Shown here piece by piece: positions 11,568 through 38,836 of a stretch of DNA of 59,322 bases. Under the pieces are notes generated by a model. That model ran no database searches. It was not told the origin of the DNA and saw only the letters and a program-made list of their open reading frames with translations. Source of the DNA: a virus (Duplodnaviria > Caudoviricetes); the IMG/VR virus record IMGVR_UViG_3300020045_011589, positions 1-59,322 of that record; one strand, 5' to 3'. Within the stretch, counting starts at the first letter, position 1. Each line of letters begins with the position of its first letter. The translations under genes and the position numbers were made by a program.

Positions 11568-12449
11568 TTATACGTTATTTAATTTTGCAAGCGGGCCTTT
11601 GTGCTTTAATGCTGTCTCATTATAAGCAATCGCTGCTTCTTTTTCCGTCACAAATCTTCCAACCTTTAAACGTTTTTTATTGAATTGGAAATCTACTTGC
11701 CATTTTCCAGATGCTTTATCAAAAGAAACCCCTTTATATTTAGAACTTTTTGTTCTTAGATACAATGGCATTTTCTTTGTTTCATTAATTTCTTGAGGAA
11801 AATTCAAACTAGCGAACTCTCCGTGAAATTGAATAGCAGCACGATCATATGTCAAAGCAGCTTCTTTTTCGGAACAGAAAAGGCCTAATACATAATCAGT
11901 GCCATTGGCACTTATATTAACACGCCATTTTTTCGTTTGAACATGCCATGATACACCTTTATATTTAGATGATGTACCTTTTCTTTTTCGAGTATTAAAA
12001 CGGTTTTGCTGCTCAGTAACTATTCGTAAATTACAACGTCTATTATCCAAACCATTACCGTTAATATGGTCGCCTTGCTGTCTATCATCATGTTTTAATC
12101 CAAGTATAAGGCGATGCATTCTAACTCTTTTGCCATTAATTCTTGAAATAGCATAAAAAGTACAATCGGAATTTTTACCGTGCCAATAATACTTAGAAAT
12201 AAGGTTATAGTTATCAATATCTACCAATGCAAATATTTTGGGATAAGTTTTTGTTCCCAAAGGTATTGCTTTTACCGTTTTGTCATCTAATACAATATTC
12301 TTTGTGTTACTTATTTGTTGTAACAATAATTTCTTGATCCAATGATCTTTCCCTTTATAGTTACAAAAAAGGGAACAAAACTTTCCTTTTTTCTGAATCT
12401 GTTTTTTAGTAAGTGGTTTGCCACATTGCTGGCATGTAGTATACTTCAA
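11568..12449 (-). CDS. Cys-rich N-terminus + HNH + two AP2 domains homing endonuclease
   Basis: TTG start after GGAGG; DHINGNGLDNRRCNL; two SSKYKGVS...EAA..Y AP2 repeats. Confidence 0.9.
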   Translation of the reverse strand: MKYTTCQQCGKPLTKKQIQKKGKFCSLFCNYKGKDHWIKKLLLQQISNTKNIVLDDKTVKAIPLGTKTYPKIFALVDIDNYNLISKYYWHGKNSDCTFYAISRINGKRVRMHRLILGLKHDDRQQGDHINGNGLDNRRCNLRIVTEQQNRFNTRKRKGTSSKYKGVSWHVQTKKWRVNISANGTDYVLGLFCSEKEAALTYDRAAIQFHGEFASLNFPQEINETKKMPLYLRTKSSKYKGVSFDKASGKWQVDFQFNKKRLKVGRFVTEKEAAIAYNETALKHKGPLAKLNNV

Positions 12450-12527
12450 TTTATCATTACCTCCTTGTAGGTAGTGGTCACGCCCTTGGCTGTTATCGCA
12501 GTGCAAGGGCTTTTCACTATTATAACA
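12450..12527 (-). promoter_or_regulatory. Conserved nuclease leader, copy 1
   Basis: TGTTATAAT; 29-nt hairpin 12482-12510; TACCT/AGGTA hairpin over the RBS. Confidence 0.8.
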
Positions 12528-12529
12528 TA

Positions 12530-12955
12530 TTATGAAGATGCAGTGCTTCTGACGACCGATCCTGTTATCTGGATTTCGCCCGAAAATTCCACCGCACCAT
12601 CTACGCTAGTTTTGAAATCATACTTTGTTAAAATACCGTTACCTGAATACCTAATGAAATTAGTATTAGTAGAAGCTGTAGAGCTTGCATAATAACTAAA
12701 TGGTTTGATTTTATTAAAAGCCCCATTTAAATAACCATCACATGTTGGATCAGCAAAACCATCAAAGCTAATCGTCCTATCCCTTAAACCAGGAACGTAA
12801 GTCTTAGCACTTTGTGTGCTATTAAATGTTGTTACATCTATTGAATCACCTGCGTTAGCGTAATCAATACTAGTTAGATACGAGCTGATATTTCTTTTTG
12901 TTGTTGACCCGTCAGCCAACATTAGACCGCCATTGCGACCGCTTGTAAATGCCAT
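12530..12955 (-). CDS. Tail tube protein
   Basis: DVTTF...KTYVPGLRD.TISFDG...YSGNGILT...FSGEIQITG lambda-like tube signature. Confidence 0.85.
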   Translation of the reverse strand: MAFTSGRNGGLMLADGSTTKRNISSYLTSIDYANAGDSIDVTTFNSTQSAKTYVPGLRDRTISFDGFADPTCDGYLNGAFNKIKPFSYYASSTASTNTNFIRYSGNGILTKYDFKTSVDGAVEFSGEIQITGSVVRSTASS

Positions 12956-13033
12956 AATTTGTCTCCTTTTTTGACAATAAAAAATGACCCTCATTATGAA
13001 GATCATCAGTAAAACTGTTTATATGTTTTTAAA

Positions 13034-13741
13034 TTACTTTCTTGAAAAGCCTACGTTTGCCGTTGCGGTTGCCGTAGAGTCACTCATTGTGTACTTAAAC
13101 CTTACGTTTTTCTTGATCGCCGTACTTCCCGTTGCAACTCGCTGCCCACTTTGCGCTGATACGGCACTAAATGTAATCAGTGTCGCCCAAGTGGAACCTG
13201 AGGTGTGCTGAATTACAGCTGTTGCTATATTACCGGCACCTGTATCAGTACGTTGAATATAACCAACCATACCATCAACTGAAGATGTCCCTGCATTAGT
13301 AGCACCATTGCCACTAGAGCTTGAGATTACACCGTTAAACAGTGATACGATCCTATCAGCAGCAACCTTGCTTTGCGCCTCAATTGACATCGATACAACT
13401 TCTTCTAGAGGCGTTTTAATATCATATTTTGTTTCAAGTGCCTGCATACCATAACCAAATGAGCCTGTAGACATTCCTTGTGGCCAGTATGTCCAAACCT
13501 TAGCGGCGGTTGAAGCTAGCGCACTATTTAAAGTGCTATCGATGTTTTGACTATCAAATAAACCATCCCCGGATAAAGAAGCGTCTACTAATCCACCTGC
13601 TATATACTCTTTATTTTCTGATGAATTAAAAACAGTTGCGTCTAGCGCACTACCTGACCTTGCTAAGTCAATACTGCTTAAATAATCCCCCATATCCCTG
13701 CCGTCCATTAAAATTACTGAACTCTTACCTGGAATTGCCAT
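13034..13741 (-). CDS. Tail-tube-like paralog with C-terminal extension
   Basis: LDATVF...KEYIAGGLVDASLSGDG parallels the adjacent tube protein. Confidence 0.7.
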   Translation of the reverse strand: MAIPGKSSVILMDGRDMGDYLSSIDLARSGSALDATVFNSSENKEYIAGGLVDASLSGDGLFDSQNIDSTLNSALASTAAKVWTYWPQGMSTGSFGYGMQALETKYDIKTPLEEVVSMSIEAQSKVAADRIVSLFNGVISSSSGNGATNAGTSSVDGMVGYIQRTDTGAGNIATAVIQHTSGSTWATLITFSAVSAQSGQRVATGSTAIKKNVRFKYTMSDSTATATANVGFSRK

Positions 13742-13758
13742 ATTAAATCACCTCCGAT

Positions 13759-14178
13759 TTATGTTGATAAATTTTTCATTGCTTCTATATTAAATGCCAT
13801 TTGGTGACGTTCATTAGAATCTTGGCCCACGTAGAACGGACTGTTGATCGGCGTTAAAGATAAATAAGTCGTCCCCGTTGCACTACTTGATGGCTTTAAG
13901 ACTACATTTACTTGCCCCATTATTATCTTGTAATGCTTTTCAGATGCATTTCTAGCCGTTTGGTAATCTGTTGAGCGATCTAATATTTGCACTCTTGGAT
14001 TTTCCCAAGCAGGCGTTGATGAACCAAATGTAAAATTTGGCTTACGTCCTGAATATTCTTGTACAAAAGTAGCTGTATCAGGTGTAAGCGGCGATTGAAA
14101 TCCTGCAAATAGATTAGTGCCTAATGTTCTACTTGTGCTATTAGAGTCGATCAGATAGCAAATTTCGTCTAAAATCAT
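13759..14178 (-). CDS. Tail terminator/completion protein
   Basis: PRVQILDR, GQDSNERH; synteny. Confidence 0.7.
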   Translation of the reverse strand: MILDEICYLIDSNSTSRTLGTNLFAGFQSPLTPDTATFVQEYSGRKPNFTFGSSTPAWENPRVQILDRSTDYQTARNASEKHYKIIMGQVNVVLKPSSSATGTTYLSLTPINSPFYVGQDSNERHQMAFNIEAMKNLST

Positions 14179-14579
14179 TACTTACCATACCTTTTTAAAT
14201 GTGCGGCGGCTTTAGCAGATAATCTTTCAGCCATGCCATTAGCAGCATTATTTAACGGCTCTTCTAAATACTTTGCTTGACCTACAGGATGTCTTGCAGT
14301 TAAATTTTCATGAACTATTACAGCATACTTACTCGCAGCTCCACCGTAACCAATTGTAACTGTTACCCCATTGCCTTTTATCTCTGGCAATTCTGCATGG
14401 CCAGAGGTTTTTAATGCAGCAGTATCAACCGGCACATAATTATCTTTGCTATCACTAATTATCTCTTGACCCTCTTGATAAAGTGCGGCCCCTAATGCTT
14501 TAGGTGATTCCCTTTTTATTCTATTCAGTATACGGATCAGCTCTTTATCTCCGGTAATCCTTAGTGTTTTACTAGCCAT
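14178..14579 (-). CDS. HK97 gp10-like neck protein
   Basis: VPVDTAALKTSG, YAVIVHE, GQAKYLEEP. Confidence 0.85.
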   Translation of the reverse strand: MASKTLRITGDKELIRILNRIKRESPKALGAALYQEGQEIISDSKDNYVPVDTAALKTSGHAELPEIKGNGVTVTIGYGGAASKYAVIVHENLTARHPVGQAKYLEEPLNNAANGMAERLSAKAAAHLKRYGK

Positions 14580-14581
14580 GT

Positions 14582-14923
14582 TTACCCCTTTGTAGCCTGA
14601 CCGCCGAAATAAACAACTACATGGTGTTGTCCACCTGTGTCGCTTATTCGCTCAATGTTTAAATTAGGCCCGGCACTTCCATCAGGTAAAGTAAATTTAC
14701 CGTTAATGCTTAGAGCCGCGGTACAGTTTAATAAAGCGCTAACAGTTGATATTTTTTCAGTTCCATCAGCTGCTTTGACTAGTTTTTGTTTATATGTAAT
14801 CCTTGCCGGATAGCTAGAATTAGCAGTTGCATGAGTATGTTTTCCATAAGCGTTTATACTGCCAGTAGCGTTATAAACAACTGTATCAACAAGCATATCG
14901 TCAAAGTCACTTTCAAAAGCCAT
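14582..14923 (-). CDS. Head closure/stopper protein
   Basis: Size and synteny; PARI...LVK..DG.E.IS pattern. Confidence 0.7.
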   Translation of the reverse strand: MAFESDFDDMLVDTVVYNATGSINAYGKHTHATANSSYPARITYKQKLVKAADGTEKISTVSALLNCTAALSINGKFTLPDGSAGPNLNIERISDTGGQHHVVVYFGGQATKG

Positions 14924-14932
14924 TATTATTCC

Positions 14933-15694
14933 TTATACATAAAAAGGTATAGATTTCTGCTTAGTCCCTATTCCTATTGATTGATAATGTAAATCAACAT
15001 AGTGCAAAAATGGAACTTGATTTAAGGTATCTGCTGCATCTGCGGGGTTTCTATAACATCTAACTAAAATTAATCCATCTGGTTCTATATCATCCGTATC
15101 AATTTGAGATGCAGATGGACTTGAAGCAGATAGTTGTACCTCTGATAGTAGATGTTGATATTGAGTTCCTGATGCTGTAGCTGTAATAGTTGTTGCTATA
15201 GATGCCGGAAATGCTGCTTGGTTGTGACCTTTTGCATAACTAACATCAAAACTCCATTTTACATTTCCAGGAATACCGCCTGCACCACCTGTATCAACTA
15301 CATTTTGTGACCAATGAGCGTGCAAATACAAATTACTTCCAGGTAAATAATCATGAGGAATATGAAAAAATAAAAATGCCTCATTCATAATTGCATTACT
15401 AAAGGCAAATGCTTTTATATCTCCCCTAAAAGTTGTTAACGTGGGATCGTTAGCTCCAGGTGATAAAACTAAAACATAACCTAAAATGTCACTCCACGGA
15501 AACGTTGGTGTTGTTGTATCTACCTTAATACCTTTGCCCGATGTTTTGGGAAGTGTAAGAAAGTTAGATACTTTTATATCTGAACTAGCAGAAATTGTAT
15601 TATCCGCATTTATTGTTCCGCTAAAAGTAGAATTTCCTGCTACCTGTATTCCGCCTTTGAAGTAATCATTTCTAAAGTGCTTATCAAATCCCAT
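14933..15694 (-). CDS. Virion accessory protein (N-terminus paralogous to 21269-21886)
   Basis: MGFDKHFRNDYFKGG vs MGYDKDFRNKYVKGG; FHIPHDY beta-sandwich-like C-terminal domain. Confidence 0.6.
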   Translation of the reverse strand: MGFDKHFRNDYFKGGIQVAGNSTFSGTINADNTISASSDIKVSNFLTLPKTSGKGIKVDTTTPTFPWSDILGYVLVLSPGANDPTLTTFRGDIKAFAFSNAIMNEAFLFFHIPHDYLPGSNLYLHAHWSQNVVDTGGAGGIPGNVKWSFDVSYAKGHNQAAFPASIATTITATASGTQYQHLLSEVQLSASSPSASQIDTDDIEPDGLILVRCYRNPADAADTLNQVPFLHYVDLHYQSIGIGTKQKSIPFYV

Positions 15695-15703
15695 GATTAT
15701 ATC

Positions 15704-16129
15704 CTAAGTAGTTGTAAGATTATCGCCAACATAATCAAATTGATCTCTTTCAAAGGATGGGGCAACCCTATCCGTATCAACTTCTTGAGTATTTTTATCT
15801 GATACTGAAATTCCACCAGCATAGACCTGCGGTGTTCCTTTAGTTTTGGCACTTGATGTGTATTTATCAGCTAATTCGCTATAATGTTTAAATTTTTGTG
15901 AGGCGCTTAATTTTAGATCCCCAACACTTTTATCAACTTGTTGAGCATATTTAACGGCTAGGGCTTGACAGGCTACACTAGCAGCACCGAACACGTTAGA
16001 TTCTGAATCGATAAAAAAGTTTATTTCCTCATCTTGAAATTCAGGATTAGACGAGTCAGTATCGTTGATTAATAACCTAACTTGGTTCAAGTCAGTTGAC
16101 AAATCACCACTATTATAAGAAAACATCAA
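15704..16129 (-). CDS. Head-tail adaptor
   Basis: VRLLINDTD...FQDEEI...VGDLK.S pattern. Confidence 0.8.
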   Translation of the reverse strand: MMFSYNSGDLSTDLNQVRLLINDTDSSNPEFQDEEINFFIDSESNVFGAASVACQALAVKYAQQVDKSVGDLKLSASQKFKHYSELADKYTSSAKTKGTPQVYAGGISVSDKNTQEVDTDRVAPSFERDQFDYVGDNLTTT

Positions 16130-16479
16130 TACTCACCCTTCACTGTAAACAATTGTCTGTCTGGTGCAGTTTCAATTTTCCCAGCACTACTTGCAAAAGA
16201 TACTTCTCCGACAAATGTGCCTGAAGATGACCAGTGACTAGTAGACCAGGCAAACAAAACAATTCCACTTGTGGGATATGTAATTTGGCCATTGCTATTT
16301 CCACTAGATGTTACGGTAATTGAGAAGTTATTATATGTACTTCCTAGTTCTCGAACTTTTAGACTTACACTATAATTTGTCAGATTCGGCGTTGTGCTTC
16401 CACTTCCGTCTCTAGAGATAGTATATTGAAGTGAGGGTAAACTGTCATTTTTGGTTATCTCGAAATCCTCTAAACTCAT
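16126..16479 (-). CDS. Virion protein, BppU N-terminal-like
   Basis: IT.ND.LP.L...GIV.FAW...GTF.GEV...ETAP. Confidence 0.55.
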   Translation of the reverse strand: MSLEDFEITKNDSLPSLQYTISRDGSGSTTPNLTNYSVSLKVRELGSTYNNFSITVTSSGNSNGQITYPTSGIVLFAWSTSHWSSSGTFVGEVSFASSAGKIETAPDRQLFTVKGEY

Positions 16480-18083
16480 ATGGATATGCCTCTCTTCGCT
16501 GTAATGAGTTGAATTATTTTTTGTTTTTCAATTAGTGTCAACTGCTTGGTGTTTCCGACAAGAATTAATCCAATTCCTTGTTTAGGCAGTTGCCATGCTG
16601 ACAGAACCCTAGTAACAGCATCTACTAGGGTGCCATCATCGGCAATTCCGATTGACATTATTAGACTTAGAATATCCGAGCTGCTGCCGATATCGCTGAT
16701 CGAAAACTGATTTGTACCTGTCAAAACTTCGGTCCCGGCCCCGCTATCAGCAATATCTTTCGTATTGACGCTGTATGCCGTAATGTCGTCTACCGCTGAG
16801 CCGGTGTCCGAAATACTAGAAGTAACGGATATAGCGAGAACTTCAACACTCGCTATAGTGTCCGATAATAATGGAACTTGGTTTGTTACCGATACTTCGT
16901 CTGTTTCTGGCCGATTTATCGTCCAGACTTCAACCGCTGAGCCGGTGTCTTGAACAGAAGCTTGAGCGCTTATCGAGATGCTGTCCCAATCACGCACTAT
17001 TTCCCAACCTTCACTTGATGTGAGGCTATCTGATATATTTTTTTCCTTTACGTTATAGGCAAGGTCAGCTCCTACTCCCACGTCAGATAGAGTAGTTGCT
17101 GCTGTGATGGCAATACCATCCTGACCCGTTCCTGTCTCAAATGGACTCATTACGACAATAGCGTCAGTGACTACATTTTCCGTATCCGGTAAGCCAAAGT
17201 CTATTAACCCGGACTCAGTTCCGATTGCTATATCAGAGGCACTTGCTGTTGCTGATATATTGATTCCCTCAGCTCCGGCTCCTGAATCTGATGCACTTAC
17301 TGGTGTTGCTGCAACAAAGTCCACAAACTCTAAATATGGTCTCCTGTCTGGCGTGTATCCTGTTTGCTCTGGCCCAAACCAGTGGTGAACATTGGGTGTT
17401 GATGTGTATGAGTTGTATATTTCCGCGTTGGAAACCAGTCCGATAACTGTAAAATCAGCAGGGTCTATGACTATCTTGGCCTCATTTAACGCAGTTGATG
17501 TCCGCATAACATTGTTGGAATTGTCAACCGGAGATATTGTCCCTGCTGAATCAGCAACCGCAAGTTCTGCTCCTGAGCCAAAATTCGTATAATCAAAATC
17601 ACTATGTGGCCCGGCGGTTTCCCCTTCCGTCAGACTACGAGGGGTTGTGAAGGGCGTAAATGCCGGATTCTGCCTAAGTCGCGGGTCGGAGACGGTAACT
17701 TTTACAATATGTGTCGGGTCTCCCGGACTATTAGGGTCTTCGTCTGAGTGCATCATGTTTAGCGTGACGCTATCCCATGTTCCAGCTCCAAGAACACTGG
17801 TATCAAAAGTTAAGATAGACCGCGCCAGTGCCGCAAACGTTCCTGTGTTGTACCAATCTGTAACAACATTACCGCCGTTCTGAGTATTTCCCTCAAAGAA
17901 ACCCATGTCGGACGTAGCGGGATAATCCACAAATGCCCCATCAAACGCCCACGCCGTTGAGTTGTACTCTGTGAAGCTAGACGCCAACCAAAGTTTTGCC
18001 TGGGAGCCTGTTTCGCCGTACAGATGCCATGCATACCCATCACCATATGGGACGATTTCAGCATATACTTTTAAATTCGGCAT
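16476..18083 (-). CDS. Fibre/decoration-like virion protein with D(S/T)GxGxE repeats
   Basis: Acidic, Ser/Thr-rich; about 9 degenerate repeats; visibly GC-richer than its flanks. Confidence 0.6.
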   Translation of the reverse strand: MPNLKVYAEIVPYGDGYAWHLYGETGSQAKLWLASSFTEYNSTAWAFDGAFVDYPATSDMGFFEGNTQNGGNVVTDWYNTGTFAALARSILTFDTSVLGAGTWDSVTLNMMHSDEDPNSPGDPTHIVKVTVSDPRLRQNPAFTPFTTPRSLTEGETAGPHSDFDYTNFGSGAELAVADSAGTISPVDNSNNVMRTSTALNEAKIVIDPADFTVIGLVSNAEIYNSYTSTPNVHHWFGPEQTGYTPDRRPYLEFVDFVAATPVSASDSGAGAEGINISATASASDIAIGTESGLIDFGLPDTENVVTDAIVVMSPFETGTGQDGIAITAATTLSDVGVGADLAYNVKEKNISDSLTSSEGWEIVRDWDSISISAQASVQDTGSAVEVWTINRPETDEVSVTNQVPLLSDTIASVEVLAISVTSSISDTGSAVDDITAYSVNTKDIADSGAGTEVLTGTNQFSISDIGSSSDILSLIMSIGIADDGTLVDAVTRVLSAWQLPKQGIGLILVGNTKQLTLIEKQKIIQLITAKRGISI

Positions 18084-18817
18084 TAGAATGTTGAGATTCT
18101 TGGGACGCTCTCGTCACTTATATTTATAGATGGAGTGGCACTGGCGCTCTCGCTCCCACTTCCAGTATCCCCCTGTGTCGCAAGGGTAAGCATAAGAGCT
18201 GCGGCATCAGCTCCGCTTCCAGTGTCCGATATACTCTTTGGTGTAGGAGGTAGGTTAAGGTCAAGATTACTGACAGAACCATCATAAGATACTACAGCCT
18301 CATTATTGAAGCCATGAGCATATCGCCATTTTACCGTACCAAAACCTGCGCGTGATAAAGGAGAGCCGGTCACATGAGTTGTTCTTCCTGAATCGGTATA
18401 AATACCCATAGTGACAATATCATTTCCTGCTGTTCTGGACAGTGAGCAATAATATGTAGTACCTGCCACCAGGACGTATCCTGTGGCGGTTGCTGCTGTC
18501 AAATTTCCTCTATAAATAAACGCCCGATAACCCCCAGCCTCACGATTGAAGTGTGCAGATAGGTCTGTCGCGGCGAACCCCGTTACCCCATCGACAACGT
18601 TTGAGAGTGATATACCACCGACACAGCCGAGAGCAGCGCTTGAGGTTATCACCATTTCCCAGGTAACTGTTAGAGCGTCAAAGGCATCTGCCCCAAAATC
18701 ATAATAGACATATGCATCTACCGAAGCACATGTCGAGACAGTGATACTGCTTGCAGCGACTGTTAAATCAGACGAAGGGTCTACTTCTGTGTATGTTGTA
18801 AAATCTTGCGCCGACAT
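18083..18817 (-). CDS. Virion protein, lectin-like beta domain + DTGSG repeats
   Basis: Beta-rich sequence; shares the repeat motif with its neighbour. Confidence 0.55.
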   Translation of the reverse strand: MSAQDFTTYTEVDPSSDLTVAASSITVSTCASVDAYVYYDFGADAFDALTVTWEMVITSSAALGCVGGISLSNVVDGVTGFAATDLSAHFNREAGGYRAFIYRGNLTAATATGYVLVAGTTYYCSLSRTAGNDIVTMGIYTDSGRTTHVTGSPLSRAGFGTVKWRYAHGFNNEAVVSYDGSVSNLDLNLPPTPKSISDTGSGADAAALMLTLATQGDTGSGSESASATPSINISDESVPRISTF

Positions 18818-18827
18818 AATTAGACTC

Positions 18828-19415
18828 CTATGATAGTGTTATATCAAGCGTCAGTTGCCATACTTGTCCGGAAGCCTTAGTCCCTTGAGCACTAACTTTT
18901 CGATTCAAGTTTTTTGCTGCTGTACTGTTGCCGTTGGCTACGGTAAATTCATTCCAAGCATAATTCGCCTGAGTTGAGCCAAACTCCGAACGCCAAGTGG
19001 CTTTTTGAGCAGTCCCGTAAGTTGGATATGCTGCTGACATAGCAACATATTTTTGCAGGGTGCTGCCTGCCTTTAATGCTATCTGAGTCGATGATGCTGT
19101 TTGCGTGCTACTACCAACTCCTAAATATGCAGCTGTACTATTGAACTTTGTTCCACTACCACTACACATTAGCGTCCATAGCTCGTTAATTCCCTCATTT
19201 AATAAAACATTTCCAGTCACTTGAGATTGCTGGGGCGACCCAAACATACTTTTTGCTTCTGTATCATTGTATATTTTTTGGTTCTTAGCATCATCAGCGC
19301 TTGCATAACGAGTTATTTTCCACTCTGCTTTCTCCGTGAGATACTCCTTAATGCCCGATGCCGCAATAATTCCCACCAAACTCTGCCCCTTACCATATTC
19401 TTGTGCGTTCATCAT
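18828..19415 (-). CDS. Conserved phage structural protein
   Basis: GNVLLNEG, YLGVG, ANYAWNEF, LNRKV, GTKASGQVW. Confidence 0.65.
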   Translation of the reverse strand: MMNAQEYGKGQSLVGIIAASGIKEYLTEKAEWKITRYASADDAKNQKIYNDTEAKSMFGSPQQSQVTGNVLLNEGINELWTLMCSGSGTKFNSTAAYLGVGSSTQTASSTQIALKAGSTLQKYVAMSAAYPTYGTAQKATWRSEFGSTQANYAWNEFTVANGNSTAAKNLNRKVSAQGTKASGQVWQLTLDITLS

Positions 19416-19543: not shown

Positions 19544-19636
19544 TTTATAATCTCCTCCTTGATAAAAATTTCAGTACTTAAAGTCTTTAGTTCGTTTGCT
19601 TATATCTTCTTGGTCTATTTGCGGCATTTATCCATC

Positions 19637-31297: not shown

Positions 31298-31954
31298 TTA
31301 TTGACCACCCCCAAGCAAAAACTCAGCGAATTTAAAATTCATTTCATTGTCGATATCGATTGATCTGTTTGGATCTGTTAAAAATGGTATTGGATTTAAG
31401 TCTAACCAATCATCAGCCTTAAGGAATGGTTTTGTTTTCGCCATTATTATTGAGCCATCATGTTTATAAGTTGGTGTTAAATCTTGTCTTTTAGATTCAA
31501 ACTCCTCATCTCTTGGCCACAATTTGCATTGCTCGATAGTTAAAGCCCATTGTGGTGGATATTCGTATTCTGAAATTGACATCAAGCAATCGGCATTACT
31601 TGACCAGAGCTTACTATAAGCACTATCTATATCGCTACTTGTTCTTAAAGGACTAGTTGGCAATAATAAAACAAACTGATCTGTTCTAAAGGGTAATGGA
31701 CTACTCAAAATATCTTTACAGACATCAAAAACCGTAGCAGTATCTGTTGCTAACTCCGGCCTTCTTAAATGAACTGAATAGTTGCTATGCTTTGGAAAAT
31801 CTTTATCATCTGTAGATATAATTATTCCAGTAATATTTACACTTTTTTGAGCCGCTTCAATCGTCCATTGAATAAGTGGCTTTCCAGCTAAAAGTTTCAT
31901 ATTCTTGTTTGGCAACCGTTCTGAATTTTTTTTGCAAGGTATAATGGCAATCAA
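31298..31954 (-). CDS. neuA: CMP-nonulosonate synthetase (NeuA/PseF family cytidylyltransferase)
   Basis: IIP...SERLPNKN...GKPLI, STD, PTSPLR, SIDID. Confidence 0.9.
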   Translation of the reverse strand: MIAIIPCKKNSERLPNKNMKLLAGKPLIQWTIEAAQKSVNITGIIISTDDKDFPKHSNYSVHLRRPELATDTATVFDVCKDILSSPLPFRTDQFVLLLPTSPLRTSSDIDSAYSKLWSSNADCLMSISEYEYPPQWALTIEQCKLWPRDEEFESKRQDLTPTYKHDGSIIMAKTKPFLKADDWLDLNPIPFLTDPNRSIDIDNEMNFKFAEFLLGGGQ

Positions 31955-32595
31955 TTTTTTAATATCTCCAAACTTCTATCTCCATGATTAAATAACAAAT
32001 CTATCACGCTTAAATTATCATTTTTATCCTGATATTCTTGGAATATTGGCTTAACGCCTGCTTTTTCAAAGGCTTCTATGTCGCAGTAATTCTTGCCCTC
32101 GCCACCAAATATGTAGCAATCGCTTTTAAGTACTTTACACATATCTAGTACTAAATCGCTCTTTAAGCCCTTAAAGTTGTAATTAGACGCTTTATAATAT
32201 GTAACATTGATATTTAGTACATGTAGCAAGTGCTTTAAAATATATTCGTTCAGTTCATCTAATAGCTGCCATTTACGACTGTAAACATCTTCAAAAAATG
32301 GCCAATACTCTTTAAAATAAGGTTTTTTACAGTAAGCTAGTTGAATTGATTTAGCATGTTTAGATCGCCAATTACTATCTACTATCTCTACATCTTTTAT
32401 TAGCTGATCTCGCCCACCTTTAACCGGAACAGTTAAAAGTATTTTACCGTTAGCCCCTTTAATATAGTTTCGGTTCTCAAATGCCTTTGGGCTAAACCTA
32501 ACTGCGTTAAAGTTACAAAAAGCATCAGCTTGCAAAATCTTATTTATAAGTCCACCCCACGGAAGATATGCGGTTTGATGCGCTGTTAAGATCAC
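31951..32595 (-). CDS. wbqC: WbqC-like protein
   Basis: HQTAYLPW, NRNYIK, LTVPV, LSVIDLLFNHG. Confidence 0.9.
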   Translation of the reverse strand: MILTAHQTAYLPWGGLINKILQADAFCNFNAVRFSPKAFENRNYIKGANGKILLTVPVKGGRDQLIKDVEIVDSNWRSKHAKSIQLAYCKKPYFKEYWPFFEDVYSRKWQLLDELNEYILKHLLHVLNINVTYYKASNYNFKGLKSDLVLDMCKVLKSDCYIFGGEGKNYCDIEAFEKAGVKPIFQEYQDKNDNLSVIDLLFNHGDRSLEILKN

Positions 32596-32780
32596 TTAAA
32601 CATCCCTATAAAAGCCTCTTTAATTGCTGCCCCTAGCTTTCTAAAAGATTGCCTAAGATCTTCTATAGCTAGTGGTAAAGTTAAACATTTTCTATGCCAA
32701 TTACCGTCATACCAAAGGCCATCGTTAAAGGTTACTAGGTCTTTATCTTTAATTGGTTTATTGCAATAAAAACAATCCAT
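32592..32780 (-). CDS. Small Cys/His protein
   Basis: CxxC...HxxC; RBS present. Confidence 0.5.
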   Translation of the reverse strand: MDCFYCNKPIKDKDLVTFNDGLWYDGNWHRKCLTLPLAIEDLRQSFRKLGAAIKEAFIGMFK

Positions 32781-32788
32781 TTGTCCCC

Positions 32789-33367
32789 CTAAGAGCTGGC
32801 AGTAGGACTTGAACCCACAACCTGTTTATATTTAGCATATTGTTTTGCCCAATACCCTCTTGGTGGTTTTTTTATGCCATACAATTTGCACCTTTTAGAG
32901 ATTGCAACACTTGTTACGCTATATTCTCTTGCTATTTGTTCACAGGATTTTTCCCAAACTAATTTAGTTAATTCATCTTTTGTAATATTAAAACGTCTTT
33001 TTCCTTGTTTGTAGCATTTAACAGAACAATACTTATTGTAATTTTTAACTGCTAAAAACGTATTTTTACAAAATAAGCATATTCTTTCTTCGGAAACATA
33101 ATTACCTCTTTCTTTGTGATGCTGTAATATATGACTGCTTAAGGTTAGAACTATAATATTTTCAATCCTGTTATCTAGCTTGTTACCGTTTATGTGATGC
33201 ACTACTTCTTGTCGTTTAAGCCATCTGCCCATCTTAATTGAAGCAATATGCCTATGATAAGCAACTAATCCCCCTTTGTTTGCGAGTGGGTGATAAGGAT
33301 CATAAAATCTATCATACGGACACTTATTGGCTTTAATTAATTTTATTTTTTTATCATAAATTATCAT
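32789..33367 (-). CDS. HNH homing endonuclease
   Basis: VHHINGNKLDNRIENI; C-terminal KKPPRGYWAK; own TGTTATAAT promoter. Confidence 0.9.
   Translation of the reverse strand: MIIYDKKIKLIKANKCPYDRFYDPYHPLANKGGLVAYHRHIASIKMGRWLKRQEVVHHINGNKLDNRIENIIVLTLSSHILQHHKERGNYVSEERICLFCKNTFLAVKNYNKYCSVKCYKQGKRRFNITKDELTKLVWEKSCEQIAREYSVTSVAISKRCKLYGIKKPPRGYWAKQYAKYKQVVGSSPTASS
32792..32826 (-). tRNA. tRNA 3'-half remnant (variable loop, T-arm, acceptor strand) inside the HNH 3' end
   Basis: AGGTT-GTGGG-TTCAAGT-CCTAC-TGCCAGC-T. Confidence 0.7.
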
Positions 33368-33418
33368 TTAAACCCCCTACTTGTAATATTATAACAAATA
33401 CTAGGTTTAAATTACATG

Positions 33419-33489
33419 AGCTGGTGAAAAGAATCGAACTTTTATTTAATGCTTACAAGGCAATTGTTTTTCCTTTAAACTACACCAGC
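33419..33489 (-). tRNA. tRNA-Thr(TGT), AT-rich
   Basis: GCTGGTG/CACCAGC acceptor, GTTT/AAAC D-stem, CTTGTAA loop, AAAAG-TTCGATT-CTTTT T-arm; no encoded CCA. Confidence 0.75.
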
Positions 33490-33491
33490 AT

Positions 33492-34235
33492 TTATAAAAT
33501 TGCATATGATAAAGTGCTTGTGAACGGAAAACGCTTAACGCTAAGATTATTTAACTTAAAATAGCTAAATACTGATTTACTTTCCCCGCTCCAATTTCTT
33601 GATCCGAGTTCGTCAAAAATTATGCATGCCCCTTTAGGCATTCTTGGTACAAAATGCTCTAATGCGGATAATGTTGGTTTCTCTATATCAAAATCTAATA
33701 CTAAAAGTGCGACCACTAACGATGGATTATACTTTATATATTTAGGGATAGTCTTACAAGCGTCCCCTCTTACTGTTTCAATCTTTTTTATATGGCCGAC
33801 TGCTCTATTGCTGTCAAATAATTCTGCTGCCTCATTGATTACCGCTTCACTGTCTACATTAAAACCGCCGTCTTTACCCTCGCCTGTATTTTTATCGGAA
33901 TCAGTAAATGATTTATGTCCTGAAAATGTATCAAACGCTATAACACGCCGTGGATTTACCGGCTCATATATAGCTGATAGCTGCCCCCATAAAAGAGTAG
34001 CGCCTCCAAATAGGGCGCCCCCTTCGACTACGTCCCCATGTACTGGTAAAATCTTTTGAAATAGTTCGACCCTTGCTAAATACTTGCTTAATTGTTGCCG
34101 AGAGCAAAACAAAGGCCAATTATTAGCTTTCTCAAAGCCTGACATTGGTGCTGAATTAAAAAATGCCTCCATATTGGAAGCATAATCTTGTTCTTTATCT
34201 GTTCTAGTCGCTTGACTAAATCTGTATGCCCCCAA
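33492..34235 (-). CDS. TylF/MycF-like sugar O-methyltransferase
   Basis: GDVVEGG, FDTFSG, GDACKTIP, LDFDIEKPT, FDEL. Confidence 0.8.
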   Translation of the reverse strand: MGAYRFSQATRTDKEQDYASNMEAFFNSAPMSGFEKANNWPLFCSRQQLSKYLARVELFQKILPVHGDVVEGGALFGGATLLWGQLSAIYEPVNPRRVIAFDTFSGHKSFTDSDKNTGEGKDGGFNVDSEAVINEAAELFDSNRAVGHIKKIETVRGDACKTIPKYIKYNPSLVVALLVLDFDIEKPTLSALEHFVPRMPKGACIIFDELGSRNWSGESKSVFSYFKLNNLSVKRFPFTSTLSYAIL

Positions 34236-34243
34236 AATTCCCC

Positions 34244-34504
34244 CTAGTCGTCAAACTTAGCTAACACCTTGCTTTGGCTCATTACTAAGCAATCCATATT
34301 GTCTATTTTAATTGTTTTTATCTTAGTAGAGTCTTTGAATACAACCCTGTCGCCTATTTCAATATCTTCTACCTTGCTGCCTATGGCCAAAATCTTGCCT
34401 GTTAACGGTATCTCATTGTTTACTAGTAAAATACCGCTTTTTGTTTCTTTTTCTGCTTCTTCTTTTGAAATTATTACTTTGTCACTGATTGTTCTAAATT
34501 TCAA
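34244..34504 (-). CDS. groES: Co-chaperonin GroES-like protein
   Basis: DKVII...ETKSGILL...GKILAIG...GDRVVF. Confidence 0.85.
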   Translation of the reverse strand: MKFRTISDKVIISKEEAEKETKSGILLVNNEIPLTGKILAIGSKVEDIEIGDRVVFKDSTKIKTIKIDNMDCLVMSQSKVLAKFDD

Positions 34505-35158
34505 TTAATCCCCCTGTTTTTCCCTATAAACCGTGAAGCAAACGTCCCCCGGCCAATAATGCATTTTCATAGTAATAAATGGACTAAATTTAGTAACAAA
34601 CTCAAGTATTGCATGAGGTTCTAATCTTAACTCTGTCTTACTATCGCCGAATGGATGAGTTGATACGCCTGTGAAAGCAATTGTCCCTTTAGATAAGCGC
34701 ACCATATGAGTTATTAGCTCAAATACTTTATTAACGCCCTCTTTTGTTACCGGAAGCTTATAAAACAGCCCCTGCGATAAGATAATGTCATACTGTTTAG
34801 GCTTGCCAGTTAATGGGCCTAATGGTTGATAATCGCATAAATCAGCATGGATTAAATTAAGATCAGGATATTCTTTTTTACCTACCTCTATGCACTTATT
34901 AGATATATCTATTCCGGTATATTTTATTTTTGGATACTTTTTTATTAAATAGTTGCCTAGATTGCCAGTACCACAACCAACCTCAAGAACAGTTTTATCA
35001 TTTAAATCCGCTACTTCTGACAAGACTTTATACCGAGCGTTTAATGATTCTTGACTACCTGCATCAGCCGATTTGTAGCCGGATCCATGCTTTTGAGCCA
35101 GATCGTCATAATAGCCCGCAATATCTGGCTTTTTACTAAGAATATGGACGTTAGACAT
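34505..35158 (-). CDS. Class I SAM-dependent methyltransferase
   Basis: VLEVGCGTG, YTGIDIS. Confidence 0.85.
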   Translation of the reverse strand: MSNVHILSKKPDIAGYYDDLAQKHGSGYKSADAGSQESLNARYKVLSEVADLNDKTVLEVGCGTGNLGNYLIKKYPKIKYTGIDISNKCIEVGKKEYPDLNLIHADLCDYQPLGPLTGKPKQYDIILSQGLFYKLPVTKEGVNKVFELITHMVRLSKGTIAFTGVSTHPFGDSKTELRLEPHAILEFVTKFSPFITMKMHYWPGDVCFTVYREKQGD

Positions 35159-35642
35159 CTTCTTTGATGATCTTAACTTTTTGTGGTTCGGCCTCTACCT
35201 TTACATTACCAATTTTATAGCAAATAACTGTAACATCTTTAGGCTTTAAGCCTTTTTCTTTTAACTTTTCGCTAACATCAGCTAAGAATTTGGCTTCATC
35301 TTCATTTTCGGCGACTACTTTCTTTTCTAAAATGATTTCTTCTTTTTTGCTTACCACTGTTACTTCATAAAGCGTTTTCATGTTTTCCCCCTTGGTTTTT
35401 TCTTTATTATTAAAAAGCTTTTTAAGACCTTCAGCATCTGCTAAATCAGAATTTCCTCTGTATGGGACTGGATGAACTGTTGGTAATGAACCATATCCAT
35501 AGTCTAAAGCAGACCAGCTTGTTGTTTTGCATCTTTGACAAGCATCTGTTCCAGCCAAACTGCAACAACAAGCATATGACGTAGTCACTGTTGCGCTTGT
35601 AGCTTCTACACTAAACCCCGTATTTACATGGTTAAATTTCAT
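35151..35642 (-). CDS. Hypothetical protein (possibly two fused small ORFs)
   Basis: Cys-rich N-half; internal RBS+ATG at MKTLYEV. Confidence 0.45.
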   Translation of the reverse strand: MKFNHVNTGFSVEATSATVTTSYACCCSLAGTDACQRCKTTSWSALDYGYGSLPTVHPVPYRGNSDLADAEGLKKLFNNKEKTKGENMKTLYEVTVVSKKEEIILEKKVVAENEDEAKFLADVSEKLKEKGLKPKDVTVICYKIGNVKVEAEPQKVKIIKEDV

Positions 35643-36033
35643 TAAGTACCCCCTTAAGTGTGGTTACGACTTGCTTTTGTTCTTCTAGTGTTATGCTCGG
35701 ATAAAAAGGCAAGCTTAATATCTCTGAAAATGCCCTTTTGCTTTCAATAAGATCATCCGGGCAACCATAATCATATACCGGTAATTCACAACAGATACCC
35801 TTGGCTTTCATTTGCTCACTTATTTTTTGAGCATTTTTTACTCTTATTGTGTATCGATAAGGACTTTTTACATCAACAAATTTACAATCTTCAGGTAACC
35901 AGAATAATAATTCATCATAGTGAGCAGCTTTACGTTGCCTTTCTTCTTGTATCTCTTTTAACCGCTCTAACTTCTTAATTGCTATAACCGCCGACACATC
36001 ATTCGATAAATCGTTAGCTGGCAAGACTTTCAA
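35632..36033 (-). CDS. DegT/DnrJ/EryC1/StrS aminotransferase, C-terminal half
   Basis: D..A.IA..KL.RL, YRYTIR, ILSLPFYPSIT.EEQ; TTG start overlaps the endonuclease stop. Confidence 0.85.
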   Translation of the reverse strand: MKVLPANDLSNDVSAVIAIKKLERLKEIQEERQRKAAHYDELLFWLPEDCKFVDVKSPYRYTIRVKNAQKISEQMKAKGICCELPVYDYGCPDDLIESKRAFSEILSLPFYPSITLEEQKQVVTTLKGVLNEI

Positions 36034-37121
36034 TTGAAATCAACTACCTTTAATAAAGCTTGTTTTGGATTTTTACGAATATCTTTTTCCCATATCCGGA
36101 CTACTTTATAACCCTTATTAATCATCCAAGTATCTCTTCTTTTATCTCTAGCCTTAACTTTTGGTAACATATGCCAATAATCACCATCACACTCTATTGC
36201 TAGTTTTTTACTTGGAATGAAAATATCCACTCTTGACCATCCAATAGGATATTGTGTTATATATTCCACCTCTAAACCATCAAGCACTTTGTGTATAGCA
36301 ATTTCAATTGAAGAAGGGCTAGCCGTTTTTGCTGCTTCATGCATTTTTAGCATATGACTATTCACAAATTCAGGTTCTTGAGACTTCCACCATTCTTTAA
36401 CTTTTAATCCGTGCTCTGGGTTTTTCCTACCTTTTAATTTTTGTCTAATTTTTTCCTTAGATCCCTCAGACCAAACCCTGTTTTTATTGCGCTCAATAAG
36501 AATGTTTATGGTTTTTTCTGATACCTTTCTTCCCATCTGTGCATTGCTAATATTTTTCTTGTGTTCATCTGTAAGTTTTTTGCCTAACTGCGATTGCCTC
36601 ATTTTTTCTATTGTTTCAATTGAGCACTTCATGCCCTTTCGAGGCGAGGGCTTGCCCCTAAGAGAAGTCCTCATTTTTTCTATGTGTTCTTTAGATAATT
36701 TTCTGCCCTTGAGTATTTTTGATATTTTATCTTTTGTTTCCTGACTATGCTTTTTACCTTTAGATGCTTTACTTAATTTAAGCCTAGTTTCTGAAGAACA
36801 TTCTCTTCCTATATTAGCTTTACTTATTTTCTCTCTTGTTTTACTAGAAACCTTATGCCCCATTAATGCTCGGCTAAGCTTTTTACAAGCTTCTGGGGGT
36901 ATTTTCTTCCCCTTATGGGATTCACTCATTTTTTGTCTTGTCTCTAATGAACGACTTTTACCTTTATTCGCTCTACTAATCTTATCTTTGGTCTCTTGGC
37001 CGTGTTTTTTCCCAAGAAAAGAGTGTTTCCCAGTGCAAAAGTTAGAACAATATTTGCCATTTCTTTTGATTTGCTGTTCGGTAAGTGGTTTAGAGCAATA
37101 TAAACACGTGGTATACTTCAT
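36030..37121 (-). CDS. Cys-rich N-terminus + NUMOD3 repeats + DUF559/Vsr-like (PD-D/ExK) endonuclease
   Basis: Many K.S.ET..K.S repeats; VDIFIP, IECDGDYWH, GYKVVRIWE. Confidence 0.88.
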   Translation of the reverse strand: MKYTTCLYCSKPLTEQQIKRNGKYCSNFCTGKHSFLGKKHGQETKDKISRANKGKSRSLETRQKMSESHKGKKIPPEACKKLSRALMGHKVSSKTREKISKANIGRECSSETRLKLSKASKGKKHSQETKDKISKILKGRKLSKEHIEKMRTSLRGKPSPRKGMKCSIETIEKMRQSQLGKKLTDEHKKNISNAQMGRKVSEKTINILIERNKNRVWSEGSKEKIRQKLKGRKNPEHGLKVKEWWKSQEPEFVNSHMLKMHEAAKTASPSSIEIAIHKVLDGLEVEYITQYPIGWSRVDIFIPSKKLAIECDGDYWHMLPKVKARDKRRDTWMINKGYKVVRIWEKDIRKNPKQALLKVVDFN

Positions 37122-37230
37122 TATATCGAGCCTCCTAGTTAGGTTCGGTCATGCTCTGGGAAGTTAGCGCTTCGCCAGGGCTTTATTTATCTTATTATAC
37201 CAGAACAAGCGTTTGGTTTAAACTATTTTT
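37122..37230 (-). promoter_or_regulatory. Conserved nuclease leader, copy 2
   Basis: TGGTATAAT; 29-nt hairpin 37153-37181; RBS hairpin. Confidence 0.8.
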
Positions 37231-37835
37231 TGATCCCCATAATAGCGATATTTTTTAACTTTTTTTACTAGCCTTTTATCGCCTGCAACAATGCCCCCGC
37301 CTGTACTACCGATTAGTTTTGTTGGCCAAAAACTTGAGATGCAAAGTGTTCCATTCATTAAAAAAACACCATGTGCCATATCTTCAACAATAGAAACTCC
37401 AAGCTTTTGCAAGCTCTTAATATCACAATAAGCACCAAACGTATGTACCGCTATAATAGCCTTTGTTTTATCCGTTATCCTTTTTCCAACGTCTTTTGGA
37501 TCAAGCGTTAGGTCGTCTTTAATGTCAGCTAATATGGGCTTTGCTCCTATACTTAATGCTGATATTTGGAGTGCGCTACATGAATATCCAGGAACTATTA
37601 CTTCATCACCATCACTAACCCCAAGAGCTATCAAGGCAAGCTTTAAAGCACTCAAGCCACTTGATACCATTGCGGCATCTTCTGACTTAACAGTACAGGC
37701 CCAAAGCCTCTCAAGTTCTTTCACTTTAGGTCCGGCTATTATCTGACCGCTTTTAATTACCCTTGCTGCTGCTAAAGCCTCAAGAGTAGAAAACTCGACT
37801 TTATTGTGTTTTACGCAAGTATGATTGGTTTGCAT
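37218..37835 (-). CDS. DegT-family aminotransferase, N-terminal half
   Basis: GPKVKELE, SSGLSALKLAL, GDEVIVP, VEDMAHG, SFWPTKL (PLP Lys). Confidence 0.9.
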   Translation of the reverse strand: MQTNHTCVKHNKVEFSTLEALAAARVIKSGQIIAGPKVKELERLWACTVKSEDAAMVSSGLSALKLALIALGVSDGDEVIVPGYSCSALQISALSIGAKPILADIKDDLTLDPKDVGKRITDKTKAIIAVHTFGAYCDIKSLQKLGVSIVEDMAHGVFLMNGTLCISSFWPTKLIGSTGGGIVAGDKRLVKKVKKYRYYGDQKIV

Positions 37836-38728
37836 ATTCCCATTTCGTTTAATGCTGGTAAATAATATTCTAAAAAATTGTCAAACTGTTGTTTTGTATT
37901 ATTTTTGGTTCCATATATTCTATGAAAATCCCAATGACAATCTATACATAATGTAATGCCATTATTAAGATCTGTTCTCAATCTTTTATTGTTTTTATAA
38001 TTATAAATATGATGCGCACATATATTTTCTTTTGATCCACATATTTGGCAAGTAAAAAAGTCTCGTTTGTAAATTGCTATTCGCCATTGTTTGTATTCAT
38101 CATAATTTCTTTTATCTCTTCTTTCTTCATCTGTTAAATTTGGGTTCCAGCTCGGATTATTTTTTCCTCTCTGCTTTAATCCCAGCTCTTTAAGATGTTT
38201 TGCCAGATTTATTTTATGCTCTTCAGATAACGGCTTGCCTTTTTTCGCCTTGCTCATATTACGTATTGATTCCTCTGAACGTCTTATCCCTGTTAGCGCC
38301 TTACTTATTTTTTGTTTTGTTTCTTCGGAATGTTTTTTGCCTATTTGAAGAAGACTCATCTTGAGCCTTGTTTTTTTGTTATGCTTACAACCAAGGTGAT
38401 AATTATTTCCTATTTTGCTTAAACCTATTTTATGTTTAGTTTCATCAGATAATTTTCTACCTTTTTGCGCTACACTCATTTTCTTTTTACTTTTATCAGA
38501 ATGCTTTCTGCCCTTACTGTTTGCAGAATTTGCACAAGTCTTAGAACAGAATAAACGATAGCTACGTCCTTTAAATGTTTTGCCACAATGCTTGCAGATA
38601 ACTTCAATTTCTTTGCCCTTATTCCAGGGTATCTTGTTGGCACAAGCTAAAGAACAATATTTGTTTTTATTTTTAATCTGCTTTTTTTTGAGTGGTTTAG
38701 AGCATTGTTGGCACGTGGTATACTTCAT
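37811..38728 (-). CDS. Cys-rich N-terminus + NUMOD3 + HNH endonuclease
   Basis: RDFFTCQICG, AHHI, NGITLCIDCH. Confidence 0.9.
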   Translation of the reverse strand: MKYTTCQQCSKPLKKKQIKNKNKYCSLACANKIPWNKGKEIEVICKHCGKTFKGRSYRLFCSKTCANSANSKGRKHSDKSKKKMSVAQKGRKLSDETKHKIGLSKIGNNYHLGCKHNKKTRLKMSLLQIGKKHSEETKQKISKALTGIRRSEESIRNMSKAKKGKPLSEEHKINLAKHLKELGLKQRGKNNPSWNPNLTDEERRDKRNYDEYKQWRIAIYKRDFFTCQICGSKENICAHHIYNYKNNKRLRTDLNNGITLCIDCHWDFHRIYGTKNNTKQQFDNFLEYYLPALNEMGICKPIILA

Positions 38729-38836
38729 TTGTAATTACCTCCTCTGTAGGTAGTTGCCATGCTCCCAGTAGTTTGCGCTACGTGGGAGCGATTTATTATA
38801 TTATACCACTTCAAGCGCTAGGTTACTATTGTTTTT
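38729..38836 (-). promoter_or_regulatory. Conserved nuclease leader, copy 3
   Basis: TGGTATAAT; 29-nt hairpin 38761-38789; TACCT/AGGTA hairpin over the RBS. Confidence 0.8.

Follow-up and report, generated by a model that had tools for sequence, protein, structure and literature searches.

In the transposon IS10/Tn10, an antisense promoter within the 5' end of the transposase gene faces the promoter of that gene, and its product, RNA-OUT, is a small and stable stem-loop RNA directed against the ribosome-binding site (RBS) of RNA-IN; Rfam holds an RNA-OUT family. The SymR-SymE pair of E. coli is a type I toxin-antitoxin pair in which the SymE gene is an SOS gene. In this study, we analyzed a window of 59,322 bp, the complete virus record IMGVR_UViG_3300020045_011589 with its terminal repeats, in which three homing endonuclease genes on the minus strand are preceded by copies of one short leader. 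As judged from sequence analysis, it is likely that this leader is a gene for a cis-antisense RNA of about 62 nt lying over the Shine-Dalgarno (SD) sequence, in the manner of IS10 RNA-OUT or SymR.

CfrI, an RNA of about 225 nt, is said to link psbA to F-CphI in a cyanophage. In the part of PMC12197685 that treats phage cis-antisense RNAs, CfrI of cyanophage S-PM2 overlaps the 5' side of a homing endonuclease gene and sar of phage P22 lies over an RBS (PMC12197685), and the EcoRI restriction-modification system is described as having an antisense RNA (PMC3141266). Homing endonuclease genes are very common in phages, and their control is described as known mainly from T4-type phages, where RBS-sequestering hairpins keep translation of I-TevI, I-TevII, I-TevIII, segB and Aeh1 mobE low, and where such hairpins are combined with internal late promoters, autorepression being a further control (PMC2988022). 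In the sections of that paper on these controls, the word "antisense" refers to stray transcripts from invading promoters and to the orientation of segD only, and to no regulatory RNA (PMC2988022).

The leaders in the window resemble the IS10 system in three respects: as far as sequence signals go, two promoters face each other and the antisense one lies within the 5' end of a gene for a selfish DNA enzyme; the predicted antisense RNA (55-71 nt, two hairpins, an anti-SD word) is small, structured and complementary to the RBS; and related copies could inhibit each other, as the 5' stem-loops of copies 1 and 3 are nearly alike. They differ from it in that no sequence or model match was obtained, in that two hairpins are present and the putative terminator is bulged, and in that the targets are homing endonucleases and other phage nucleases rather than a transposase, on contigs of 38% to 74% GC. 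With SymR, they share an antisense promoter-like site in the first codons of a nuclease-like gene and a predicted RNA covering the SD and start region, but here, too, there is no Rfam match, and the genes belong to phage homing cassettes and are not SOS genes. No member of the SymE family was found among the window proteins or in the downstream tallies given below, where the 150-protein tally lists 25 of 47 families.

The predicted RNA would be phage-encoded and cis-antisense, as are sar and CfrI, although neither of these, compared by description, is presented in the relevant part of PMC12197685 as a conserved and structured family moving together with nuclease genes. The RBS hairpins of T4-type phages have the same purpose, low endonuclease translation, and likewise hold the SD sequence in a hairpin. 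However, control there is exerted by the mRNA itself, and the RBS is freed by transcription from a late promoter that the structure encloses, whereas here the -10 element of the gene-strand promoter lies upstream of both hairpins (by 8-12 nt in the window copies and 6-21 nt elsewhere) and the selected structure is on the other strand. The PeSL cassettes of Arbiol et al. 2010, reportedly promoter-plus-stem-loop units found in T4-type phages only, are not said to be antisense RNA genes. Compared by description, they are similar to the present element in being short cassettes of a promoter and a stem-loop that flank variable genes and mark recombination joints; in the present case, the leader and about the first 10-30 codons are common to unrelated proteins. 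What seems to be new is a conserved, portable, structured RNA family, whereas cis-antisense control of a selfish nuclease would be a regulation of a known kind.

Three nuclease genes with a common leader

The initial annotation of this DNA had reported three genes with a common leader and a common N-terminus, and all of the elements were found on the minus strand at the same positions, with the three hairpin sequences exactly as quoted there. In every copy, the leader consists, in this order, of an extended -10 element (TGnTATAAT), a 29-nt hairpin (7-bp stem, bulged C, 4-bp stem and 6-nt loop), the pentamer GTGAC, ATGAC or ATGGC, an SD hairpin, and the start codon. In copy 1, TGtTATAAT is read at 12527-12519, followed by the hairpin (12510-12482), GTGAC (12481-12477), AAGGAGG (about 12466-12460) and a TTG start codon at 12449. 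In copy 2, a promoter scan identified the gene-strand promoter TTTAAA-17-TG-TATAAT (37194..37222, minus strand), in which TGGTATAAT ends at 37194, and this is followed by the hairpin (37181-37153), ATGAC (37152-37148), AGGAGG (37136-37131) and ATG at 37121. In copy 3, TGGTATAAT at 38808-38800 precedes the hairpin (38789-38761), ATGGC (38760-38756), GGAGG (38742-38738) and ATG at 38728. The hairpin of copy 2 has one C.A mismatch in its outer stem. Copies 2 and 3 also share, as had been noticed before, the upstream stretch AATAGT..AACC.A.CGCTTG, which includes the -35 region. A loose hairpin pattern allowing 1 mismatch gave 4 matches in the whole window against 1.19 expected, three of them being the copies, and a covariance model built from 70 copies scored these at 50-59 bits with the next window match at 13 bits, that is, the window holds exactly three copies.

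The genes behind the leaders carry different nucleases, and the Pfam assignments agree with the three payloads proposed earlier (HNH-AP2, Vsr-like and HNH). Gene 1 (11568..12449, minus strand, TTG start) encodes a zinc finger with HNH_3 and AP2 domains and is located between the tail-tube gene and the next tail gene. Gene 2 (36030..37121, minus strand), which encodes a zinc finger, NUMOD3 repeats and a Vsr-like MTES_1575/DUF559 nuclease, is located inside a DegT aminotransferase gene. Gene 3 (37811..38728, minus strand) encodes two zinc fingers, NUMOD3 repeats and an HNH domain; the second finger of endonuclease 3, of the form CxxC...CSxxC (VICKHCGKTF...FCSKTC), is at residues ~44-70.

The N-terminus common to all three proteins is MKYTTCxxCxKPLxxxQIxxxxK(Y/F)CSxxC. 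Protein P0003 shares with P0001 only residues 1-29 (72% identity), and it is similar to P0002 over residues 1-166, which hold the finger and the NUMOD3 repeats (41%), while the nuclease ends of these two differ. As judged by a profile search, the finger is a real, generic small zinc finger that recurs in many proteins: 132 proteins were found elsewhere, many with several repeats, and the finger is also present on HNH_3+AP2, HNH_3 and NUMOD3+Vsr-like proteins. A related-locus search with a 38-aa finger alignment gave 83 pattern matches, of which 0 were confirmed, a homologous-protein search with finger residues 1-40 returned the query only, and a DNA pattern for MKYTTCxxC matched 7 loci, none of them related.

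Covariation and strand of the structure

The covariation claimed for the three stems was substantiated with a larger set of copies. In an alignment of 70 copies, 95.1% of the stem cells are paired as compared with 76.5% in shuffled alignments (30-45% in slid controls), and 148 cells have changed on both sides as compared with 40 in shuffles, with 0/500 shuffles reaching 148. Covariation alone cannot tell on which strand a structure resides, and here it was the comparison of G.U with C.A that reversed the first reading. On the gene strand, all 38 non-Watson-Crick cells of the 70 copies are C.A or A.C and G.U is absent (0). As a C.A or A.C on the gene strand is a G.U on the opposite strand, the antisense strand pairs at every cell. 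The bias of this selection was in favor of the gene strand, since a gene-strand G.U was counted as a pair when the copies were chosen.

When selection was made strand-neutral, with a minimum of 8 strict Watson-Crick pairs among the 11, 222 of 265 unique pattern matches remained; this selection was used in place of a strand-neutral re-selection without patterns, which caught many unrelated hairpins. In this set, C.A was found in 63 gene-strand cells, G.U in 7 and other mismatches in 29 (binomial p 2e-12), and the hairpin energy was lower on the antisense strand in 205/222 copies. Similar trends were obtained for the SD-hairpin region, which played no part in copy selection: it is steadier on the antisense strand in 155/176 copies (-9.2 vs -6.0 kcal/mol), and G.U makes up 277/1455 pairs in the antisense folds vs 75/1202 in those of the gene strand. 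The 176-copy set was picked for perfect antisense pairing of the first hairpin, and its "0 broken pairs" are therefore true by construction; the tests on the second hairpin, on the promoters and the strand-neutral count are left unbiased by this rule. Both the mismatch pattern and the fold energies thus point to selection of the structure on the strand opposite the nuclease gene, and not in the mRNA leader, where the initial annotation had placed it.

According to the mRNA-leader model, the 5' hairpin would stabilize the message or bind a protein, and the second hairpin would bury the SD sequence, with possible feedback on expression by the finger. Both hairpins do form in folds of gene-strand RNA, the second enclosing part of the SD sequence (-19.8, -17.7 and -21.6 kcal/mol for copies 1, 2 and 3, with z values of -2.9, -1.75 and -3.6), a gene-strand promoter lies just upstream, and RBS-sequestering hairpins are a documented control of T4-type homing endonucleases (PMC2988022). 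Nevertheless, we regard this model as unlikely, as the mismatches are C.A on the gene strand and G.U on the other, as both hairpins are weaker on the gene strand, and as an antisense -10 element in the first codons and an A-rich tract upstream of the hairpin, both described below, would be left unexplained. The module also precedes many proteins that have no finger, and autoregulation by the shared domain, as had been suggested, is disfavored for that reason.

Promoter-like and terminator-like signals on the antisense strand

Antisense promoter-like sites were present at the same relative place in all three window genes on the plus strand: TTGCCA-16-TATACT at 12418..12445, within codons 2-11 of the HNH-AP2 gene and with 10/12 consensus matches, and TTTAGA-17-TG-TATACT at both 37089..37117 and 38696..38724, in the first codons of genes 2 and 3, respectively. 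The codons for K-Y-T give the antisense -10 element and those for (S/G)-K give the -35 element. As the first codons hold this promoter-like site, their conservation is not due to the protein domain alone, and the embedded antisense promoter would explain, at least in part, the shared N-terminal nucleotides.

Outside the window, an antisense TANNNT was found opposite gene positions -3 to +14 in 119/131 GC-rich copies vs 4-5/131 in four control windows, and in 31/45 AT-rich copies vs 6-14/45 in controls. Its position, in codons 2-5 for the GC-rich copies, peaks sharply at +8 (60 copies) and +11 (29 copies), and the same element in sense orientation was seen in only 11/176 copies. At one locus (L024), the scan found antisense TTGCCT-17-CATAAT exactly across the MNTKVDEGK codons. 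A facing gene-strand TANNNT was located 6-21 nt upstream of the hairpin in 114/176 copies vs 14/176 in a control window.

The predicted antisense RNA of copy 1 (12452..12514, plus strand), with its ends placed from the promoter and the U tail, would consist of a 5' stem-loop with the anti-SD word CCUCCU, a GUCAC linker, the terminator hairpin (12482-12510) and a UUUU tail, and folds at -28.4 kcal/mol (z -5.3) vs -19.8 for the gene strand. For copy 2 (37124..37187, plus strand), the putative terminator hairpin (37153-37181) is followed by UUUAUUUA, and the fold reaches -27.8 kcal/mol (z -3.9) vs -17.7; for copy 3 (38731..38795, plus strand), the putative terminator hairpin (38761-38789) is followed by GAUUUAUU, at -29.1 kcal/mol (z -5.2) vs -21.6. 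The antisense transcripts of the window form two clean hairpins each. Across 147 copies, the length predicted for the RNA ranges from 55 to 71 nt, the median being 62 nt, and the anti-SD word is found at the stem/loop border of the 5' stem-loop in 121/176 copies. As the antisense RNA overlaps the leader, it would be complementary to it.

By eye and by folding, the antisense tails after the hairpin are UUUUC, UUUAUUUA and GAUUUAUU in the window. In the 176 copies, whose median is 62% GC, gene-strand counts average 4.2 A (U in the antisense direction) for the 8 nt that precede the hairpin and 1.0 T for the 8 nt that follow it. With this U-rich tail, the hairpin resembles an intrinsic terminator when read on the antisense strand. 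Another notion is that it is only that, an insulator halting stray transcription out of the inserted gene before the upstream phage gene is reached, without a dedicated regulatory RNA. The U-rich tail and the strand asymmetry are what an antisense-strand terminator should have. However, a -10 element at a fixed distance, yielding a narrow predicted length of 55-71 nt, speaks against it, as does the 5' stem-loop, for which a bare terminator has no need and whose antisense form is the better one, with many G.U pairs. We therefore consider the insulator model quite improbable.

Spread of the element in other genomes

All copies elsewhere were found by patterns derived from the window hairpin, and every collection scan gives lower bounds, the counts being those among the matches listed. 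The IMG/VR pattern fixed 15 bases of the hairpin plus its 3' flank and forced only 3 stem pairs. Scanning viral contigs gave at least 120 matches, and 89 of those listed had at least 9/11 stem pairs. A loop-free scan yielded at least 107 unique matches, of which about 80 of the 107 listed keep the inner stem and the bulged C, and a flank-free scan yielded at least 106, with at least 10/11 stem pairs in 104 of the 106 listed.

The CGnnAA loop and the RTGRC flank, given earlier as constant features, hold for the window but vary beyond it. Across other phages, the bases of the hexaloop vary, C....A and U....G being frequent forms, and the 3' flank in the flank-free copies listed has the consensus N-Y-G-R-C, with G at the third place in 89/104 and RTGRC in only 29/104. 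In the same scan, 92-93% of the copies have purines (A or G) in the 3-5 nt that precede the hairpin. The distance from the hairpin end to the start codon is 16-36 nt, with a median of 26. In bacterial genome contigs, at least 120 pattern matches were obtained, 28 of those listed having at least 9/11 pairs, and about 20 of the 120 listed look real (10-11 pairs), mostly in metagenome-assembled genomes of Actinomycetota type.

Among named phages, Arthrobacter phage Persistence has two copies according to the covariance model, one ahead of gp34 (endonuclease) and one ahead of gp41 (HNH), and Pseudanabaena phage Pan2 has one, ahead of an HNH gene that is flanked by head and tail genes. Further nuclease-linked copies thus exist, as expected if the module is portable. 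No motif was found by the model near the related HNH-AP2 genes of Bacillus phages 268TH002 and Stahl. In these phages (268TH002, L443 1552-1564; Stahl, L444 1501-1504), the HNH-AP2 gene lies directly behind a DnaB-like helicase gene, and promoter, leader and finger are all absent. The nuclease payload is therefore found both together with the cassette and alone, as would be expected if the module were an add-on. The comparison with related phages that had been proposed did not define the ends of the inserts, because no close relatives with empty sites were found: megablast gave no match to a close relative of the window phage, and no tail-tube relatives were found among viral contigs. Acinetobacter phage TCUAN1 was rejected as a carrier, the 39 nt matched by BLAST being some 100 nt upstream of the hairpin and no copy being detected there with the covariance model.

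Pfam assignments of 150 non-redundant downstream proteins, in which family counts overlap in part, gave HNH_3 (40), HNH (19), HNH_5 (12), Endonuclease_7 (5) and integrase (6), together with the rarer GIY-YIG (2), LAGLIDADG (1), OrfB_IS605, i.e., TnpB (1), and serine recombinase (1). These results support the proposal of a portable module that swaps its payload, with HNH_3, HNH, Endonuclease VII, GIY-YIG, LAGLIDADG, TnpB and integrase genes downstream elsewhere. The 150 proteins are those kept of 164 (set A5), and an earlier set (A3) is made up of the 61 out of 64 unique proteins that reach 60 aa. Under the rule applied, no downstream open reading frame (ORF) was assigned to 14 of the 89 matches with well-paired stems. 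From alignment A4, L039, L094 and L100 (3/73) were left out as doubtful, having no downstream ORF and GCGC-type stems, and set A6 combines the 3 window copies with 135 others out of 171, namely the first 145 less ten skipped by hand.

The single TnpB gene, the location of copy 2 within a split gene, and the fact that IS200/IS605 ends are imperfect hairpins could suggest that the element acts as DNA, i.e., as a single-stranded hairpin for an IS200/IS605-type or HUH enzyme, as a protein operator, or as part of a group I intron in DegT, but this is hardly credible given that there is no right-end copy (three upstream copies only in the window, and usually one per locus), that the hairpin is fixed in position relative to the SD sequence and the start codon (the 16-36 nt given above), that the G.U-type asymmetry points to RNA, that no Rfam group I match was obtained, and that the same leader precedes two copies not inside genes. 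An IS200/IS605-type element was rejected on the same grounds, as copies are upstream only with no downstream partner and a TnpB gene follows the motif in 1/150. A leader peptide starting at the RTG after the hairpin was also rejected: the main start is in frame 0/1/2 in 51/28/56 of 135 copies, and R is present at its position in only 59/104 flank-free copies, CTG and TTG being common as well. For a tRNA-like minihelix or RNase P mimic, a boxB/nut or put-like antiterminator and a ribozyme, the geometry of the hairpin (7 bp, one bulge, 4-5 bp, a variable loop of 4-6 nt, and no CCA) did not seem to fit, and the strand result made these candidates moot.

The motif is not catalogued in Rfam 15, in keeping with one of the checks proposed at the outset. 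A scan of the whole window on both strands matched only two tRNAs, and permissive scans of positions 36900-38900 (E up to 10) and of five other motif loci (E up to 1) gave nothing over the motif. Literature searches returned no description of this hairpin family, and in the main text of 2026 preprints on non-coding element discovery, the terms HNH, homing and endonuclease are absent.

In one group of related contigs (L024 at 7530-7558, L043, L045, L056 and L080), differing small proteins share only their first 9-10 codons (MNTKVDEGK), and other protein sets of this group start with MN(D/K)NPIQSNLPEF or M..KLTPHNSFKVTL. An embedded opposite-strand promoter would explain why unrelated proteins have their first codons in common. 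The motif also flags annotation errors, affecting the start of Persistence gp34 and the length of the Pan2 HNH gene. The annotated start of gp34 (L135 1104) is on the RTG directly after the hairpin, and Pan2_09, the "HNH endonuclease" (L136 2530-3288), is annotated with 69 aa although the open frame extends over 252 aa from just after the hairpin. Both are likely annotation slips.

Discussion

The leader combines a covarying structure, mismatches that assign it to the antisense strand, promoter-like and terminator-like signals at fixed spacing, and a link to mobile nuclease genes. From these features we infer both the production of an RNA and repression by it. In the mechanism proposed, each copy would be a compact control cassette of about 130 bp with two promoters face to face. 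The gene-strand promoter TGnTATAAT would start the nuclease mRNA, while the opposite-strand promoter in codons 2-12 of the nuclease gene would start the small RNA of about 62 nt, which would cross the start-codon region and the SD sequence and stop at the 29-nt bulged hairpin with its U-rich tail. Of the two hairpins of this RNA, the 5' stem-loop would present the anti-SD word CCUCC where stem and loop meet, and the other would be the terminator. The RNA could pair with any leader-bearing transcript, including read-through from the upstream tail or sugar operon, and the resulting duplex would keep ribosomes from binding and/or be open to RNase attack, with head-on transcription adding interference. 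The nuclease, which is potentially harmful, would thereby be held to a low and buffered level. The antisense RNA thus probably keeps the selfish nucleases at a low level, so that the tight limit on expression proposed by the initial annotation remains plausible, though via an antisense RNA rather than the mRNA leader. At the same time, the terminator hairpin would keep antisense transcription out of the upstream phage gene, and it should let transcription of the phage operon pass, since no U tail follows it in the gene-strand direction. Copies 1 and 3 have 5' stem-loops that are almost the same, and their RNAs may therefore act on each other.

Several observations weigh against an antisense RNA gene. 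A minority of copies have a gene-strand G.U (the 7 cells of the strand-neutral set, and also Pan2), and the whole-leader and first-hairpin energies of the 176 copies are biased because this set was picked for antisense pairing. Cis-antisense pairs form hairpins on both strands, and the SD hairpin of the mRNA may also act. Promoter-like matches in the window occur at chance density (3 vs 2.4 expected, and 8 vs 7.3), so that the promoter argument rests on positional conservation and not on single-site scores. A simple terminator scan that allows no bulge did not call the hairpins, and the U tail of GC-rich copies is short, with 3 U in many cases. About 1/4 of the first 61 downstream proteins, all from one related-contig group, are small proteins of unknown function and not nucleases.

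A broader proposal can be put forward only tentatively, as one that we would not expect to hold in full, namely that: a mobile "silencer cassette" of about 130 bp, made up of the facing promoters and the 62-nt two-hairpin antisense RNA, has spread with selfish nucleases and been swapped among them in phages of several bacterial phyla; it forces a shared N-terminal peptide on the proteins behind it; and it may cross-silence in trans or act like an antitoxin. The cassette has been seen in Arthrobacter phages, a Pseudanabaena cyanophage and the window phage. Silencing in trans between related copies may be similar to multicopy inhibition or to competition among homing elements, and the cassette may also act like a type I antitoxin, making the nuclease gene tolerable to the host phage.

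If an antisense RNA is indeed produced from the leaders of these many unrelated phages, it would represent a second general solution to homing endonuclease control and a sizeable unannotated small-RNA family in viromes. The cassette could also be tried as a small, self-insulated "tight-off" expression unit for cloning toxic genes.

Genomic context of the window copies

Almost all window genes are on the minus strand. The terminase is nearest to Bacillota-phage terminases, a host assignment resting on at most 48.5% identity, the best value obtained; human-faecal phage contigs and Geobacillus, Clostridium and Staphylococcus phages are among the matches listed. The two tRNA genes detected with Rfam 15 are at 33419-33489 and 53933-54020, both on the minus strand. 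Just upstream of copy 3, after the GNAT gene, the minus strand has a classical terminator at 38836-38866, in which six T come after a G+C-rich inverted repeat, and copy 3 therefore probably relies on its own promoter.

A nonulosonic-acid-like (pseudaminic- or legionaminic-type) sugar-pathway cluster occupies 34505-35158 and 39045-43386 on the minus strand, with two adjacent NeuB-family ORFs (80-nt overlap), an intact DegT gene, a Polysacc_synt_2 dehydratase, a GNAT acetyltransferase and a methyltransferase. A second DegT/DnrJ-type aminotransferase gene is split by the copy-2 cassette into 35632-36033 and 37218-37835 (minus strand), with the endonuclease gene (36030-37121) in between. When compared to the intact paralogue (41336-42412), the N-half corresponds to residues 4-208 and the C-half to residues 228-352. 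A group I intron in this gene was rejected, as Rfam detected no group I core, the gap from the stop of the N-half to the start of endonuclease 2 is only 96 nt, and the TTG start of the C-half (36033) overlaps the endonuclease stop codon. As a result of this overlap, the DegT C-half and endonuclease 2 may be translationally coupled. The nrdA/mobE locus of phage Aeh1 is reportedly a "gene in pieces" as well, similar to the split DegT gene here.

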